Source of the DNA: a virus
Taxonomy: Duplodnaviria; Caudoviricetes
Strand: one strand, 5' to 3'
Virus record (IMG/VR): IMGVR_UViG_3300013947_000021
Coordinates: 128,001 to 192,000 of that record
Length of the DNA stretch: 64,000 bases
The notes beneath the pieces were generated by a model, which ran no database searches, was not told the DNA's origin, and worked only from the letters and a program-made list of their open reading frames with translations. Positions within the stretch are counted from its first letter, which is position 1, and each line of letters starts with the position of its first letter. This document shows positions 9,713-56,478 of this stretch, piece after piece. Position numbers and translations under genes: made by a program.

Positions 9713-10441
9713 TTATCTACGTAATATTGTATTACGATCTATTAAATTTAAATATTTCTTAACTTTATCTGCGCGAATAAAATATGTCATAGGATCTTCT
9801 CCTATGACCGTTATATTTTCAGATGGTACTTCTATTCGTTGATTGATATAGTCATATAATACTGCTCGTGAAGTATTATCTACTAAATCATTATACTTGC
9901 ATAAATATTCCATATTTACTCCAAGATATTCTGGAGCTATACCATTCTCATGTATAAATGATCGTTTAGCATCATTTATATTGCATGTAGATCTATGATC
10001 TAATACATGTCCTCTTTGGTGATAGAATTCTACTTTCATATCATTAGAGACTATTGTATTAAATACTTGAATAAATCTTTGTTGATTTAAAACTGGATTT
10101 CCTTGTGCTGAATAAAGTATATTATTATTCATATTCTTTATCCAGCTAGGAATCCATTCTCTTAATCCAAAAATAGATATTCTTGAATCTGAAAATATTC
10201 TAAATAGAATATTCTTATCTTTTTGATATAATTCAGCCGCTTTATTTACTGCTGTGAGTATTGCTAGGATTTCTGCTGAATTATTTGTTGCATTTTTTTC
10301 AATTGTACAAATTACATCCTCATATGAATGTAAAACTTGTTGTGTCTTAAAATCTTGTACAGACATTGAGTATGCTGCGCAAGCAATCTTAAGAGGTGCA
10401 TCAATAGATGCATCACAATAAAAATTAATAATTTTGTCCAT
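9713..10441 (-). CDS. rnhA: Ribonuclease HI
   Basis: YCDAS, TNNSAEILA, IFSDS, HQRGH, NDLVD: RNase H acidic tetrad. Confidence 0.85.
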   Translation of the reverse strand: MDKIINFYCDASIDAPLKIACAAYSMSVQDFKTQQVLHSYEDVICTIEKNATNNSAEILAILTAVNKAAELYQKDKNILFRIFSDSRISIFGLREWIPSWIKNMNNNILYSAQGNPVLNQQRFIQVFNTIVSNDMKVEFYHQRGHVLDHRSTCNINDAKRSFIHENGIAPEYLGVNMEYLCKYNDLVDNTSRAVLYDYINQRIEVPSENITVIGEDPMTYFIRADKVKKYLNLIDRNTILRR

Positions 10442-10490
10442 GATAAACTCCTCATATATTTAAAATTAAGTAAGATAAATAATAATCTTA

Positions 10491-10507: not shown

Positions 10508-10524
10508 CAACCATATTCGATAAT

Positions 10525-10619
10525 AAAAAATAAATACTAGTAGCAGAAATGCTACTAGTATTTATCAGAAAGTGAGTAAAACGAATGACAGATTTTTAAT
10601 TAGAGGGCAACTTCTAACT
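10525..10619 (-). ncRNA. Candidate small RNA with anti-SD/anti-AUG segment (about 95 nt)
   Basis: AACA-ATATAG-TA promoter 10619-10630, 5' hairpin AGUUAGA/UCUAAUU, UCUGUCAUUCGUUUUACUCACUUUCUG, terminator 10531-10564 with U tract. Confidence 0.5.
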
Positions 10620-10639
10620 ACTATATTGTTATATAGTAT

Positions 10640-11212: not shown

Positions 11213-11320
11213 AGTTTATTTCCTCCTTTAGGATTATTTATATAAATATTTTTTGATATTTATTCCAAAATATGTACTGGAATTTATCTATATGTTGTAG
11301 CTTGGGTAGTTTTAATTTAT

Positions 11321-31833: not shown

Positions 31834-33651
31834 TTAGCCGTTATTCGTGATAAGGTTGAAATCCGACATATGGTTGCCAGTCTCATAATGAGTATCCTTA
31901 TCAAACGGATCGGTGTTGGGAGCAATGTTCTCAAGTCCAGTCGGATGAAGGATCTTAATACGACCCTGAACAGGCTGATACTCATAGAACTTCCAACGCT
32001 CAAATGCATGAACTGCCGGAAGTGCCGGGTTAGCAGCATTTCTGATCTCGTTCGAGACATAGAGCTGGTAATCATAAATACGGTAAACAATACGATCACT
32101 ATTTCTCGGGCAGAGAATGATAATGAGGTTAGTATTGCCACGGAGCTTATCAGACGAAATGAACTGGTAAACTCTCTTATCAGAAGTAACAACAGTCTTC
32201 GTGAAGTCAAGATCAACCGGACCGATTGCAGACGGAGTCTGATAAGTATACTCAGTAGGAGTAATCTTACGAATAAGCTCAGGAGCACCAAATACCGAGA
32301 TGGTCATGTTCGGATCGTTAAGAACCTGGAAGAGACCAGTCGAAACAGTATCAAGGTAATCCATGAACGTCTTCTGTCTCCACTCAATGTGATCAAGAGC
32401 ATAGCCCTGTCTCGGAGCGAAGTCAAAAGTGGTCTGATACTTGGAGTACTTGTCCATATGGCGGAACGAGTCATCAAGCTCATGATGGATAGCAGTATCC
32501 TTATACTCACCAAGAACGTCCTTCATAAGATCAAGAACCTTCGAGAGCTGATTTACGTTGTAAAGAGCACCAAGATCCTTAACCTCTTCCGGCGACACAG
32601 GAGTATTCATCGGAATAGCATTACCAATCTCGACAACGTCAGTCTTAACAGCCCACTGAACCGATCCCATCGGATAGTTAGCAGAAGAGCTATCGAGCTG
32701 AGCCGAGATCTTAATAGCAGTGATAACACCCTTAGCGGAAAGGACAGAAACCTTATTCTTGTCCATCTTGCCATAGAGCTCATCTTCCTTAACAGTAGTC
32801 TTAGTCTCATCAGTAGCATCAGTGCATTCAATCTGAACTCTCTGAGCCATGATACGATTAAGATCACCGTAGTTCGGAGTAAACATGTACTTTACCGGAT
32901 ACCAAACATCCTTCGTGGTAGCCTCACCAAGAACCTCACCAGACTCAGGATCGATCTCACCAGCAGCAAAGTGAACATCCTTAACCTTAATAGCAGAAAT
33001 ATAAGTATCAATTGCGAAGCTGTCATCATCAGTACCCTGAAGGTCAGTAAGAATCTCTTCAGACTGAGTCTCAGTAAGCGGAAGAGTAAACTCAAACTCC
33101 TTCATCGGACGAGTATTAAGCATAGCTCCGTAGATCTTGTTCTGCTCCTTGAACATATCGATCTTCTTGCCATCAGGAGTTACGAAGTAACGAGTCTCCA
33201 TCGAGACAGTGAACTTCGGCTCTCTAGCGACAAACTTCGGAATAGCACCCTTGTCGAAGACCGTATTCATAAGAATATTCTTATGAACCGGGAAGGTCAT
33301 ACCGATAACAGGGTTGTAGGTATTAAGAGCTGCATTCTCAAGCACAGCCTGAGCATCATTATTGAAGAGCTCCTCATACATAAGATGTGCATCCTCAGCG
33401 AGGACTGCAGCATTTGCAGGATCAACACTAGCGAACTCGTTATCATCAACACAGTTCTCAGTGTAGAAATTCTTAAGTGCTTCTCTAGAAGCTCTAACCG
33501 AAAGAGCAGTGACCGGATCTCTAAAGAGATCAACTGCACACTCAGAAAGAATATCCTTACAAGTAGAAATAAACGATTCTGTATATGCTCTATTAGCAGT
33601 AGTATAACCAGAACCAACAGTGGTCTGCTTTCTGTTACCAATTACAGGCAT
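31834..33651 (-). CDS. Major capsid protein precursor
   Basis: 605 aa with very strong expression-type codon bias; in head module; promoter AACA-TCATGA-TA 33725-33736 plus 5' hairpin; probable propeptide ending AVLE-N. Confidence 0.75.
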   Translation of the reverse strand: MPVIGNRKQTTVGSGYTTANRAYTESFISTCKDILSECAVDLFRDPVTALSVRASREALKNFYTENCVDDNEFASVDPANAAVLAEDAHLMYEELFNNDAQAVLENAALNTYNPVIGMTFPVHKNILMNTVFDKGAIPKFVAREPKFTVSMETRYFVTPDGKKIDMFKEQNKIYGAMLNTRPMKEFEFTLPLTETQSEEILTDLQGTDDDSFAIDTYISAIKVKDVHFAAGEIDPESGEVLGEATTKDVWYPVKYMFTPNYGDLNRIMAQRVQIECTDATDETKTTVKEDELYGKMDKNKVSVLSAKGVITAIKISAQLDSSSANYPMGSVQWAVKTDVVEIGNAIPMNTPVSPEEVKDLGALYNVNQLSKVLDLMKDVLGEYKDTAIHHELDDSFRHMDKYSKYQTTFDFAPRQGYALDHIEWRQKTFMDYLDTVSTGLFQVLNDPNMTISVFGAPELIRKITPTEYTYQTPSAIGPVDLDFTKTVVTSDKRVYQFISSDKLRGNTNLIIILCPRNSDRIVYRIYDYQLYVSNEIRNAANPALPAVHAFERWKFYEYQPVQGRIKILHPTGLENIAPNTDPFDKDTHYETGNHMSDFNLITNNG

Positions 33652-33773
33652 TTTATTTATCTCCTTTCAATAATTAAATTGAGAATTTTATTATTTTATT
33701 AATTACCGTATTTCGGTAATATTTTATCATGATGTTAGCAAATCATCTTTTTGCAAGACTTAAATTAACCAAA

Positions 33774-37594: not shown

Positions 37595-38221
37595 TTATAT
37601 TTCAGATGTATCATATTTTAAAGCATACTTCTCAAAAATCTTAAATTGTTCAAATTCTGTTTCTTCTTTTCCATAAATATTTTCAAATTCTTTATTTAAT
37701 ATAGAAGAGTCAAAATCGGGCATGGTGAAATTAAATATCATCATCATATTAATGCCATAATTATTAGCATATAATCCTAAAAGCGTTTTATACACTATAA
37801 AATTAGTATGGTCAAGATCAATATCATTAAATTCTTTCTTAGTTTTTCTACTAAGTAAATAAGAATGAACAAAATGATTTGTTAAATTACATGATGCATA
37901 AAGAATCATATCAGAAAGATAATCTATAACCTCTAATCCTTCTGGAGTAAAAAGTTGTAAGGAATTATATATTTTCTGATCTAATTCAGGAATCATACTA
38001 CCATCAGTATTTGAAACCTGATCAAGCGTAATAATATTAAATCTATCTGTAATATTTTTATAATTAGAAATACTGTGATAGACTTTATTTATTATTTCTG
38101 TGCCTAAAACGTTTTCTGGTTGTTTTGTAGCTTTAATTTTATCTTTTAGGGTCTTTTCATTTGCTACAGCAAGTTTCATAAAACTCATTTTCGATATTGG
38201 TAAATAAGTGTCTTTTTTCAT
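37595..38221 (-). CDS. Hypothetical early protein
   Basis: 208 aa, AGGAG SD, early motif 38279-38295. Confidence 0.7.
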   Translation of the reverse strand: MKKDTYLPISKMSFMKLAVANEKTLKDKIKATKQPENVLGTEIINKVYHSISNYKNITDRFNIITLDQVSNTDGSMIPELDQKIYNSLQLFTPEGLEVIDYLSDMILYASCNLTNHFVHSYLLSRKTKKEFNDIDLDHTNFIVYKTLLGLYANNYGINMMMIFNFTMPDFDSSILNKEFENIYGKEETEFEQFKIFEKYALKYDTSEI

Positions 38222-38312
38222 AATAAATTTCTCCTAAATAAAATATATTTTTTTTTGAATACATTTTAATTATTTGTATTCAAAAATATAATATCTAATT
38301 ATTTTAATAAAT

Positions 38313-38493
38313 AATAAAAAGAATTAAGGTGCAGCCATCTCAGCCGCACCTTAATCTATTTCAACAAAAGGAGAAATCATGAAACGAAAACAACAAAAAT
38401 TTACACGAACACAAAAGCAATGAGCAAAATAAATGAAAGGAAAACAATGAAAACCAAATCACGAGCAGTAGAGATTGGGACTTAATCCCTACT
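38313..38493 (-). ncRNA. Candidate multi-target anti-RBS small RNA (about 180 nt)
   Basis: AACA-TATTAT-TA promoter 38493-38504; 9-bp 5' hairpin; U/G-rich body with four CAU/anti-SD segments; 14-bp terminator 38323-38355 plus U tract; G-U pairs form only on the minus strand. Confidence 0.7.
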
Positions 38494-38523
38494 AATAATA
38501 TGTTAATATTTTTTCATAAATAT

Positions 38524-38670
38524 AAAGAAAATAATGCAAGATGAATTTCCATCTTGCATTATAATTTTCTGAAAGGACAATAATACATAATAAATTGTAA
38601 CGAAAATAAAATATATGAGGTTCCAAAATCACCAATAGCTATCCCACAAATTAGATGGTGAGTCTAATTT
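38524..38670 (-). ncRNA. Candidate anti-RBS small RNA (about 147 nt)
   Basis: AACA-CTATTA-TA promoter 38670-38681; 5' hairpin AAAUUAGA/UCUAAUUU; U-rich body with UUAUUGUCCUUUCA; terminator 38531-38562. Confidence 0.6.
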
Positions 38671-38765
38671 ATAATAGTGTTTGTAATATATTTTTAAATA
38701 CCAGCCAAATTCTATATGTCCAAACATATCGATAAATATATTTAAATACCGGAGGTGTATATAAT

Positions 38766-39581
38766 ATGGCAAATATGCCTATTGGATATATAATTCTTGA
38801 AGGTGCACCATCTGAAATTCCAGATGCCACTATAATAAAAGAATCTAATAAAAGAGTTATAGGAGAAGGAATTATTCAGACTGCAGAAGAAGAAAATAGA
38901 AATGGAAGATGTTATCTTCAGCCTGATCTTTTAAGAGAAGTTCAGTGTGCAAGAACTAAAGAACTTCTTACTACAGGAAATATGCTTTCTGAGAATGGTC
39001 ATCCTATGGATACATCTATGATTAGGCAGCAGACTATTGATCCTAATAATACTGTCGCTAGATTTCTTAAGATCTGGATGGATGGAAATAATGTAATGGC
39101 TCAATTTAAGGGAACTAATAATGCTAAGGGCGAAGAATTTGATCAGGATCTTAGGGAAGGCGTTCTTCCTAGCTGGTCTCTTAGAGCTCTTGGTTCTCTT
39201 GCAAATAAGGGTGGACGTAATGTAGTTGAAAATCTTAAGGTTATTACCTGGGATAGAGTTATTTATCCGTCTCATCCTCATGCTTATACTACTAGACTTG
39301 TAAGCGAGTCTGCTGGAATTCGTGATAATTCTATTAATACTATGAATAAAAATGGTAAACTCATTCCTATTACAAATGAGTCTGTTGTTTCATATATTAA
39401 ATCAGAATCTGGGAGAATTAAATCTCTTATTGAGCAGGTTGATTTTATGTATGAATCTACTGATATCGTAGATAATGGACGTAGAGTAAGACTTGTTGCT
39501 AAGAATGGTGATATCTTTATGATAAATCTTGAAAATCATGTTGCTAATGAAATTGAAAAATATTGTCTGACTAGAAGATAA
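38766..39581 (+). CDS. Prohead core protease (T4 gp21-like)
   Basis: NRNGRCY, ENGHP, SWSLRALGS, ITWDRVIYPS; promoter AACA-TATCGA-TA 38723-38734. Confidence 0.85.
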   Translation: MANMPIGYIILEGAPSEIPDATIIKESNKRVIGEGIIQTAEEENRNGRCYLQPDLLREVQCARTKELLTTGNMLSENGHPMDTSMIRQQTIDPNNTVARFLKIWMDGNNVMAQFKGTNNAKGEEFDQDLREGVLPSWSLRALGSLANKGGRNVVENLKVITWDRVIYPSHPHAYTTRLVSESAGIRDNSINTMNKNGKLIPITNESVVSYIKSESGRIKSLIEQVDFMYESTDIVDNGRRVRLVAKNGDIFMINLENHVANEIEKYCLTRR

Positions 39582-39684
39582 ATAATACATGAATTAGGTA
39601 GAAGGGTTGTTCCCTTCTACCTAGCTTTTATTACGTCAACTTATAAATAAATATTAGATATATTGAAAGGAGGAAAATAATATT

Positions 39685-41898
39685 ATGCCTGTAATGTATA
39701 ATAATGTAAATACTGGTGCACCGCAGCAGTTTAATATATATTATCATATGTCTACTAATAATAAGTCTTTTCTAGAAATGCATCAATTTCTAAAAGACCG
39801 TGGAATACAAAATAATAAATTTATGCTTGTTCTTCTAAACCCAGAACTTGCAAGAATAGATCCTAGGGATCCTAATCTTCCAATGCCTTATAGAGCTCTT
39901 GTATTAAGGGAATGCCTATCCAATCCTTGGTATTTCTTTAGAGAAATTATAAGGGTACCTCAGGAAGGTCAAACAGCAGGTGTACCTTTCCAATTAAATA
40001 GAGGAAACTTGGCACTTTTATTCTGTCTTATGCTCAATATGAATATATATCTTGAACTTCCTCGACAGACAGGTAAGACTATTGGAGCAGTTTGTTGGTA
40101 TCTTTATTTGTATAACTTTGGAACTCAGAATTCTCAGATGTCTTTCTTAAATAAGAAGCTTGACGATGCTAAGCTTAACTTACAGCGTCTTAAGAATATA
40201 AGAGATCTTCTTCCTTCTTATTTAAAAATGGATTCTGCTTATAGTGCAGATGGCACTAAGTTAAAGTCTAGAAGTAATGTCGAAAGTATGCAGCATGTCT
40301 TAAATAATAACAATATTAAGACCATGCCGTCTGCTAGATCTGCCAATGCAGCAGCCAGCCTTTTAAGAGGTCAGACTACGCCTATTATATACATGGATGA
40401 GTATGCCTTCATGCCATATAATAATATCGTTTACTCTAACATGATTCCTGCATTTAATACTGCAGCGCAGAATGCTAAGCAAAATGGATCTCCTTATGGA
40501 CTTCTTTTAACTTCTACCCCCGGATTCTTAACTACAGATGAAGGTAAAGCCGCATTTGATCTTAAGAATAGAGCTACTGTATTTAGTGAAAACTGGTATG
40601 ATCTTCCTGTAAATGCAATTATGGATATTATTCATACTAATACAAATTCTAATTTTGTATATATTAAATATACTTATCAGCAGCTTGGTAAATCTGAAGA
40701 ATGGTTTAGAGATCTTTGTATTACTCTTAATAAGGATTGGGAAGCAATACGTCGAGAGATTCTTCTTGAATGGGCTCTTGCTAATACCAATTCTCCATTT
40801 AGTCCTGAAGATCTTGATACTATAAAGAGTTTATTAAGACAGCCTATAAATACAGTTCTTATAAATAATAAGTATGAATTAAGAATATATGAAAAAATAG
40901 ATCTTAGATATCCGCCTATAATGGGAGTCGACGTCTCTGGTGGATATAGAAGAGACTCTTCTGCAATAACTATTATAGATTCTTATAGTACAAGGGTTAC
41001 CGCAGAAATGAATAATAACTTTATATCTACCCCTGAATTAGCAATGGTTATATATAAAATAGTAACCGAATGGATTCCTAATGCAGTAGTAAATATAGAG
41101 CGAAATGGCGGATTCGGTGCATCTGTTATTGCAAGATTACTTCAGACTTCTATAAGAAAGAATCTTTTCTATACAATAAAAGATAAAGTTGTAGAAGAAA
41201 GAGTTCTCGGATCTGCTATTCATAAAACAACACAAAAAACAAAAGTTTATGGTTCAGATTCTACTAAAACTGAAAGAGAAACTCTTATGGAGATTCTCCG
41301 AGATAGAGTAGAATATCATAAAGACAAGATAGTATCTCCTATAATATATGAAGAACTTTCTGGTCTTGAAGTTAAAAAGGACGGTAGAATTGAGCATTCT
41401 AGTAATACTCATGACGACCAGGTATTCTCATGGCTCTGGGCTCTTTATGTATATTACTATGGTGGAGATTTAATGCGGAACTGGGGTATAACAAAACATG
41501 TTCTGCGTACTGATGCCGATCTTGAAGAAGCTGTTGTAGATATTGGAGAAGAACAGGAAGATGTTGTAGGAAGTATCGATACTGCAGATAATCCTGATAT
41601 TCAATCACAGCTTGATGCTATGGATAGATCTCCTGGTAAGAAATCTTATCAAGAATTTTCTAAAGAAGAAGAAGCTAAAGATAATGCATATTTAGCAAAA
41701 ATTTTAGCAGATAAAAATATAAGAAATACATTAAATAGTAAATTTAAAGTTATGGCTTCTGAATATTCTAATAACGATGGAAGCTCTGTAACTAATATTC
41801 CTACAGATGTATTTATGAACTTTAATAAAGATGATAATGAAATAAATCAGTATTCAGTTTTACAAGGAAACTTGTCTAATTTATTTGGAGGTAAGTAA
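39685..41898 (+). CDS. terL: Terminase large subunit
   Basis: PRQTGKT Walker A, IYMDEYAF Walker B, MGVDVSGG...DSSAI nuclease, HDDQVFS. Confidence 0.92.
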   Translation: MPVMYNNVNTGAPQQFNIYYHMSTNNKSFLEMHQFLKDRGIQNNKFMLVLLNPELARIDPRDPNLPMPYRALVLRECLSNPWYFFREIIRVPQEGQTAGVPFQLNRGNLALLFCLMLNMNIYLELPRQTGKTIGAVCWYLYLYNFGTQNSQMSFLNKKLDDAKLNLQRLKNIRDLLPSYLKMDSAYSADGTKLKSRSNVESMQHVLNNNNIKTMPSARSANAAASLLRGQTTPIIYMDEYAFMPYNNIVYSNMIPAFNTAAQNAKQNGSPYGLLLTSTPGFLTTDEGKAAFDLKNRATVFSENWYDLPVNAIMDIIHTNTNSNFVYIKYTYQQLGKSEEWFRDLCITLNKDWEAIRREILLEWALANTNSPFSPEDLDTIKSLLRQPINTVLINNKYELRIYEKIDLRYPPIMGVDVSGGYRRDSSAITIIDSYSTRVTAEMNNNFISTPELAMVIYKIVTEWIPNAVVNIERNGGFGASVIARLLQTSIRKNLFYTIKDKVVEERVLGSAIHKTTQKTKVYGSDSTKTERETLMEILRDRVEYHKDKIVSPIIYEELSGLEVKKDGRIEHSSNTHDDQVFSWLWALYVYYYGGDLMRNWGITKHVLRTDADLEEAVVDIGEEQEDVVGSIDTADNPDIQSQLDAMDRSPGKKSYQEFSKEEEAKDNAYLAKILADKNIRNTLNSKFKVMASEYSNNDGSSVTNIPTDVFMNFNKDDNEINQYSVLQGNLSNLFGGK

Positions 41899-56002: not shown

Positions 56003-56034
56003 TTATTAAAATTTAATGAAAGGATAATAAAGCA

Positions 56035-56478
56035 ATGAGCAATACTAAAAAATATGTAATAAATACTAAAAATATTTTTGGATTAGAAAAATTTTTGCAT
56101 ATTAGTAAAGATAAATTAGAAGTTCCAGATGATTATTATAGTGATAAAGATGCATGGGATATGATAAATGAAGCGGCACATTTTAGTAACGATCTTTGTA
56201 CACTTAAATTATTATATCCTCATGCAAATTATAAAGATATTCTTATTGCATCATTTCAGGCTAATCCCAAATTACTAGCTTATATTTTGAGCATGTTTAA
56301 AATTTGTAAATCTGAAGGAAATCCAATTGATGCAGATACAATAAATAATTGGATGGCTGAAGCTACAGTAGTAGATGGATCAGCTAATAAAGAATTACTT
56401 GCTAATTCATCAATTATCGATAATAAGTTTCCTAGCAAATCTAATAAGTCATATATACAGAAGGAGATAACAAAATGA
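56035..56478 (+). CDS. Hypothetical protein
   Basis: 147 aa; GAAAGGA SD; initiation region matched by both 38.3-38.7 kb RNAs. Confidence 0.7.
   Translation: MSNTKKYVINTKNIFGLEKFLHISKDKLEVPDDYYSDKDAWDMINEAAHFSNDLCTLKLLYPHANYKDILIASFQANPKLLAYILSMFKICKSEGNPIDADTINNWMAEATVVDGSANKELLANSSIIDNKFPSKSNKSYIQKEITK

Follow-up and report, generated by a model that had tools for sequence, protein, structure and literature searches.

A candidate late non-coding RNA unit divergent from the prohead protease gene of a human-gut jumbo phage

Among the systems closest to the locus considered here is AR9, a jumbo phage of Bacillus whose late units are transcribed by its non-virion RNA polymerase from promoters of the consensus AACA-(6N)-TA/G, the final base being the transcription start site (TSS), and whose early promoters follow the consensus ...ATATTAT-(6N)-G (PMC5312081). 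The late units of AR9 resemble the units discussed below in both motifs, in their hairpin-plus-U terminators and in the split multisubunit RNA polymerase homologues of the phage; the AR9 paper, in the text searched, mentions only antisense and internal promoters and is without the word 'noncoding' (PMC5312081). Unlike AR9, the phage here is an uncultured virus of the human gut with no blastn match in the phage collection, which was searched with the intergenic region described below. The stretch of DNA that was analysed, hereafter the window, is 64,000 nucleotides long and corresponds to bases 128001-192000 of a single virus contig of 221,227 bp (29.6% G+C); contigs identical or near-identical to this phage originate from human gut metagenomes. 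Within the window, a gap of 544 nt without an annotated gene (38222-38765) holds two predicted small RNA units on the minus strand, RNA1 and RNA2, the second of which is the main subject here. The gap is bordered on one side by an ORF of 208 amino acids and no family (37595-38221, minus strand), and on the other by the prohead protease gene (38766-39581, plus strand), 3' of which lies the large terminase gene (39685-41898, plus strand). Metagenomes contain more than 1,200 relatives of this protease.

In Firmicutes, RsaE and RoxS are independent promoter-to-terminator small RNAs (sRNAs) in which an unpaired pyrimidine-rich motif pairs with purine-rich Shine-Dalgarno (SD) sequences. RNA2 has no sequence or Rfam similarity to these RNAs, and it displays CCUUUC rather than CCCC or UCCC, a stretch that varies even between strains. 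StxS of Shiga-toxin phages is, like RNA2, a short phage RNA that runs from a late promoter (PR') to a terminator immediately 3' of it, through early termination (PMC7547250); unlike RNA2, it belongs to a temperate phage, is transcribed by the host RNA polymerase and involves an antitermination site ahead of the late operon. RNA2, in turn, differs from StxS in being divergent from the late operon and in being followed by an early promoter. In the case of the c4 antisense RNA of phages P1 and P7, short complementary segments in loops block the ribosome binding site of the ant mRNA, and RNA2 was proposed to act alike; c4, however, is processed from the transcript of its target and its pairing is experimentally established (PMC12197685), whereas no target of RNA2 survives statistics or strain comparison. 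The likeness of RNA2 to StxS, to c4 and to the Firmicute sRNAs with C-rich seeds holds only by analogy.

For phiKZ, another jumbo phage that encodes RNA polymerases of its own, any phage sRNAs are expected by the authors to be late, and the one 75-nt sRNA that was predicted could not be detected (PMC8244752). No validated sRNA of a jumbo phage was found in the literature searched, and the regulatory RNAs of virulent phages, especially of jumbo phages with their own RNA polymerases, are almost unexplored. The RNA2 locus represents a well-delimited and testable candidate, in that its promoter class predicts timing, three strains show where it is constrained, and sister units are present in the same genome.

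Promoters, terminators and the layout of the locus

Genome-wide, the motif AACA-N6-T(A/T) shows a sharp peak 20-40 nt 5' of start codons, and the extended late consensus in this genome is AACA-WWTWWA-TAA. On both strands together, 46 of the 62 copies of AACA-N6-TAA are intergenic, in a genome of which 11.7% is intergenic DNA, and 31 copies are positioned no more than 60 nt 5' of a start codon, mostly at 20-40 nt. The genome also encodes RNA polymerase homologues, two of them beta-like (matches to Rpb2_6) and one beta'-like (match to Rpb1_2). Given this enrichment, the agreement with the AR9 consensus and the polymerase homologues, the promoter call of the first-pass annotation rests on real signal, and AACA-N6-TAA clearly qualifies, on its genomic distribution, as a promoter of this phage. 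Another motif that recurs between genes, (A)GATATTAT-N6-G, is the same as the early consensus of AR9. An early-type consensus, (T)AGATATTAT-N6-G(AA), close to the AR9 early motif, is found at 38281-38297 of the window (minus strand) and at 10 other intergenic sites; together, the early motif and AACA-N6-TAA make possible a temporal map of an uncultured phage from sequence alone.

The anatomy that the first-pass annotation had assigned to RNA2 is present as described. The promoter, AACA-CTATTA-TA followed by A (38670..38682, minus strand), has its AACA at 38681-38678 and its TA at 38671-38670, equals the AR9 late consensus, and places the predicted +1 at the A at 38670. Transcription from this position would begin with a stem-loop, AAAUUAGA-CUCACCA-UCUAAUUU (38648..38670, minus strand), with an A/U-rich stem of 8 bp and a minimum free energy of -3.9 kcal/mol; an alternative helix, UCACCA/UGGUGA, may also form in RNA2. 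The stem-loop is followed by a conserved segment, UUUGUGGGAUAGCUAU(U)GGUGAUUUUGGAAC (38617..38647, minus strand), and by a variable U-rich stretch (38563..38616, minus strand) in which the two proposed seeds lie (38609-38620 and 38570-38583), together with the sequence CCUUUC at 38576-38571, for which the predicted probability of being unpaired is 0.52, or half accessible. The body of RNA2 amounts to 85 nt with 47% U. The intrinsic terminator (38520..38562, minus strand) consists of a 14-bp stem (38562-38531) that includes 4 G-C pairs, a loop AAAU and a U tract, with the tail UUUUCUUUAUA (also written TTTCTTTATA or UUUUCUUU).

The fold of RNA2 has a z-score of -3.35, and a terminator scan of the surrounding 2-kb region yields three terminator-like sites where 0.7 are expected. 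The prohead protease gene is preceded by a late promoter, AACATATCGATA (38723..38734, plus strand), that points away from RNA2, is conserved in relatives and has its TSS 64 nt from that of RNA2. A cis-antisense role was looked for in 38222-38722, where no plus-strand ORF or promoter motif is found, the protease TSS being divergent and 64 nt away. None of the Rfam 15 covariance models reaches its gathering score in the window, permissive thresholds yielded nothing more than sub-threshold hairpin hits in 38200-38800, and RNA2 has no paralogues in the genome.

Because of the promoter statistics and the conservation of the terminator described below, a discrete late non-coding RNA that starts at 38670 and is transcribed as a unit is likely. 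The reading preferred here, at a little short of an even chance, is that of a stand-alone late unit, from 38670 to ~38524 on the minus strand, of a human-gut jumbo phage with AR9-type promoters, the RNA of which acts as a riboregulator or a protein-binding RNA. The non-virion RNA polymerase of the phage would make a discrete RNA of ~140-147 nt late in infection, in parallel to the head genes.

Downstream of RNA2 on the same strand, RNA1 (38315..38504, minus strand) has the promoter AACA-TATTAT-TA with its +1 at 38493, followed by a hairpin, a body and a terminator at 38356-38322. The description of the two as tandem units of the same architecture is borne out by the layout, with a late promoter and a terminator for each, but not by sequence, as the kinship between RNA1 and RNA2 gives P=0.07. 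That the pair is divergent from the protease-terminase operon is correct, and the late class of the predicted promoters fits expression together with the morphogenesis genes. Opposite RNA1, plus-strand mini-ORFs with perfect SDs were considered and rejected: they have no plus-strand promoter, the terminators there are one-directional, and the mini-ORFs are not conserved in relatives.

An early-type promoter, AGATATTAT-ATTTTT-G (38281..38297, minus strand), lies ahead of gene 37595-38221. As this promoter, of the GATATTAT-N6-G class, follows the second terminator, the two units cannot be regarded as a mere leader of the gene that comes after them. An extended leader or attenuator could still be envisaged, in which the promoters at 38670 and 38493 provide late expression of 37595-38221 and the genes beyond through partial or regulated read-through of the terminators; no late motif accompanies these downstream genes themselves, and the RNase H gene elsewhere in the window is preceded by the same layout of late unit, terminator and early promoter. 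However, the two terminators stand in series, with strong stems of 14 bp and 16 bp and U tracts, AR9 terminators are reported to stop transcription strongly (PMC5312081), and no alternative antiterminator structure is evident; this arrangement is distinctly improbable. Compared with L052:1359-1964, L026:1362-1967 and L057:89-697, gene 37595-38221 itself shows ~30% DNA divergence and many gaps, relative to 2-5% for the flanking genes, and has the appearance of an early gene cassette that was exchanged or that evolves fast.

Constraint among strains and relatives

Three strains were compared, with the window as strain A, L052-L055, L026 and L063-L066 as strain B, and L057-L062 as strain C. At 4-fold degenerate sites, A differs from B by 7-12% and from C by 17-18%. 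The RNA2 promoter shows no change in its 13 nt in either strain B or strain C. The 5' hairpin is unchanged in strain B; in strain C its loop is altered at one position, and a matched insertion (A...U) extends the stem to 9 bp. In the segment 38647-38617 the three strains differ by a single substitution and the loss of 1 nt; promoter, hairpin and this segment together amount to 2 substitutions in ~53 nt relative to strain C. For the terminator stems, one change in 28 positions is seen in each strain comparison (in strain B, the top G-U becomes A-U), whereas the terminator loop is different in each of the three strains. The remaining part of RNA2, 38616-38563, holds both seeds and has ~11 substitutions in ~45 aligned positions plus 17 gap columns in strain C, where three of the four variants also have CCUUC in place of CCUUUC. 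The two proposed seeds are thus located in the least conserved part of the RNA, which drifts at an approximately neutral rate. From this comparison, the promoter, the hairpin, 38647-38617 and the terminator stems are under constraint, and the conserved 5' domain would be the likeliest functional part. RNAalifold on four sequences found no covarying pairs, and a pattern scan of metagenomes for the conserved 5' segment recovered one short contig only.

That the unit encodes a small protein on either strand is barely credible. ORFs of 12-47 codons do exist in it, but all of them lack an SD and none is conserved, and from strain to strain indels of 1, 5, 8 and 4 nt put all reading frames out of register.

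At greater distance, the sequence of the unit can no longer be aligned, but the position of its promoter is kept. For L020, at 90% protease identity, the gap is no longer alignable, yet it contains two terminator-ended units, each with UUUUUCCUUUC. At 71-80% protease identity (L027, L029, L031, L068, L070 and L072), a late-type promoter is found at the same distance from the protease gene, in the form AACA, AACT or AACG followed by N6-TA/G. Across all lineages this promoter lies 85-106 nt from the protease ATG, the RNA bodies being unrelated in length and sequence, and in every related lineage examined the divergent late promoter there drives a terminated RNA without an ORF. At the promoter of this upstream RNA (L020:2400-2420, L029, L070 and L072), AACT-N6-TA occurs in four lineages and AACG-N6-TG in one; in this group of phages, substitutions at position four of the AACA box appear to be tolerated. 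In the terminase start region (39640-39687 of the window, plus strand), an extended SD, (U/A)UGAAAGGAGGAAA, is kept across lineages from 71% to 100% protease identity.

In the six lineages at 71-80% identity, the RNA at the RNA2 site is 245-355 nt long and without an ORF (L027:3046-3399, L029:2270-2513, L031:3106-3399, L068:1424-1694, L070:1376-1704 and L072:1427-1698, all minus strand). Conservation is confined to a 5' AAGAG and to a 3' hairpin, AAGGACCC-UUUAUACA-GGGCCUGG, that immediately precedes the terminator. This hairpin is kept in all six lineages, with two covarying pairs in L029, in an RNA with an otherwise highly variable body; downstream of this RNA there is usually a short unit that resembles RNA1 and contains CCUUUC. 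Neither the long RNA nor its 3' hairpin was found in RNA2 or in the whole genome of the window by blastn and pattern search, and what the long RNA shares with RNA2 is the promoter position only, and possibly a YCUUUC stretch. A search of L001 and L003 against Rfam gave no match. The long RNA appears to be a so far undescribed RNA of phages that carries a conserved handle.

These comparisons bear on a further explanation, in which the RNA arises as a by-product or as part of an insulator: what counts would be that late transcription runs divergently next to the protease promoter (for instance through local supercoiling or polymerase loading), the terminators would keep late transcription out of the same-strand early operon downstream, and the sequence of the RNA would have no specific job. 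The retention of promoter, 5' hairpin and terminator stems beside a near-neutral 3' body is in line with this explanation, as are the fixed promoter position with unrelated bodies across lineages and the early promoter found after the terminators both in the window and in relatives. Against it, the transcribed segment 38647-38617 is as conserved as the promoter, strains A and B are identical at all 110 aligned positions of the RNA1 body although their 4-fold sites differ by 7-12%, a 3' hairpin with covarying pairs persists in the long RNAs of relatives, and CCTTTC is enriched in units without an ORF. A by-product or insulator is unlikely.

Complementarity to translation start regions

The first-pass annotation proposed a specific mode of action, in which RNA2 (pairing with 56017-56030) and RNA1 (pairing with 56029-56042) together cover the SD and the AUG of ORF 56035, and in which RNA2 also represses ORF 9213 and the RNase H gene. 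The predicted pairings were scored as ungapped helices over all 208 start regions of the phage genome, with shuffled RNA2 and antisense genomic decoys of equal length as controls; ranking by RNAduplex was dropped, as its long interior loops give unrealistic duplexes. All of the pairings exist. Segment 38570-38583 can form 14 pairs with 56017-56030, one of them G-U, the leader of ORF 9213 pairs over 13 nt with two G-U, and 38609-38620 is the exact reverse complement, 12 of 12, of the RNase H leader at 10450-10461, where the identity of ORF 9713-10441 as RNase H is confirmed. The three rank among the best four of the 208 start regions. However, the best helix score of RNA2 is at the level of chance (P=0.30 relative to shuffles, P=0.23 relative to antisense genomic decoys), and exact matches of 12-14 nt to RNA2 number ~30 across the genome. 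By contrast, the high score of RNA1 and RNA2 on the same start region, that of ORF 56035, is rare in the controls (nominal P 0.002-0.01; P=0.002 with shuffles and P=0.007 with decoys, where 0 of 600 decoy pairs reach the joint threshold).

Comparison of strains argues against this coincidence. In strain B, for which the same samples yielded both the RNA locus and the homologue of ORF 56035, the leader of ORF 56035 has AAUAUCAUGGACAA where strain A has AAAGCAAUGAGCAA, with differences at 5 of the 14 positions of the RNA1 site, and the G-U of the RNA2 site becomes G-A, breaking the helix; RNA2 38570-38583 is itself unchanged, and both RNA segments are kept without a compensating change for the altered leader. 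In strain C, the RNA1 14-mer that matches 56029-56042 is deleted, and the RNase H 12-mer of RNA2 is destroyed by substitutions and an 8-nt deletion. ORF 56035, moreover, has relatives in six protein clusters only, no match in the genomes of three relatives, and is absent from the relatives at 71-77% identity. Thus, the uncompensated change in strain B and the losses in strain C leave the shared-target model unsupported, and tiling of the SD and AUG of ORF 56035 by two RNAs is very unlikely. What is left after the strain comparison is an 8-nt match to UGAAAGGA, common to eight phage start regions including that of terminase. The targets named in the first-pass annotation are probably coincidental; overall, its observation of the unit is partly confirmed and its interpretation partly supported. 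As a caution, complementarities of 12-14 nt to start regions arise by chance in a genome of 30% G+C, and a comparison of strains can reveal them as such.

The conserved 5' domain, including 38617..38647, also has no complementarity to phage start regions (P=0.93). This is what would be expected if the 5' domain, comprising the hairpin and GGGAUAGCUAUGGUGAUUUUGGAAC, or else the CU-rich stretch, bound a host or phage protein instead of an mRNA, as a protein-binding or decoy RNA. The RNAs of relatives, in addition, conserve a hairpin with an invariant loop, a pattern that would be typical of a protein handle. In RNA2, however, no covariation defines a structure, and the proposal is speculation from the pattern of conservation alone; protein binding to the exclusion of mRNA carries a low probability. 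The features of a trans-acting base-pairing sRNA that are found are an own promoter and terminator and the lack of a conserved ORF, and those that are not found are target complementarity above chance and a seed that is conserved or covaries with its target. Counting against the preferred reading, that of a stand-alone late unit with a functional RNA, are the failure of the RNA2 body to align at 90% protease identity, the absence of complementarity above chance to the phage start regions tested, for the whole body or the 5' domain, the drift of the 3' half, a CCUUUC that is half accessible, the presence of its complement GAAAGG in only 10 of the 208 start regions, and the lack of an Rfam match.

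Units without ORFs elsewhere in the genome, and the CCUUUC stretch

Five units of the genome run from a late promoter to a terminator without an ORF, namely RNA1, RNA2, a unit at 10619-10523 of the window, and two with starts at genome positions 123249 and 202456. The sequence CCTTTC is present in four of the five, mostly predicted to be unpaired, where ~0.11 copies are expected in their 693 nt. The third unit (10523-10631 of the window, minus strand) opens with the promoter AACAATATAGTA, continues with a 5' hairpin and with CUCACUUUCUG, and ends in a terminator of 17 bp, after which come an early-type promoter, GCATATTATATTCATG, and the RNase H gene, in the same layout as at RNA1. The last two units (C1:123091-123249 and C1:202344-202456, both minus strand) are outside or at the edge of the window; they too have 5' hairpins, with UUCCUUUCU and CCCUUUCU, respectively, unpaired just 5' of the terminator.

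In RNA1, two modules, CAUUGUUUUCCUUUC and CAUGAUUUCUCCUUUU, are perfect complements of an SD plus AUG. Both are kept in strain C, in which 18-19 nt and 9 nt are deleted outside the two modules, and AUUUCUCCUUUU in RNA1 is the complement of the commonest SD of the phage, AAAAGGAGAAAU. The CCUUUC stretch of RNA2, which resembles the 3' tail of Firmicute 16S rRNA, also occurs in other late units without an ORF and may mask SD sites of the UGAAAGGA type. Start regions with GAAAGG-type SDs show no bias to the early or the late class. A broader conjecture is that AR9-like gut jumbo phages make a set of late, ORF-less RNAs with their own polymerase (at least five in this genome, RNA2 included), which display a copy of the 16S rRNA 3' tail, CCUUUC, or full modules against SD plus AUG, mask ribosome binding sites and re-allocate translation among phage or host mRNAs late in infection; as a general scheme this is unlikely.

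A stable hairpin within the first 30 nt is found in 8 of 47 late transcripts, equal to controls, and is therefore not a general feature of late transcripts in this phage. Stable 5'-end hairpins (for instance 33650-33736 of the window, minus strand, and those at 11285, 63406 and 66100) cluster in late transcripts that have a long leader or no ORF, a distribution that fits a role in protecting the 5' end.
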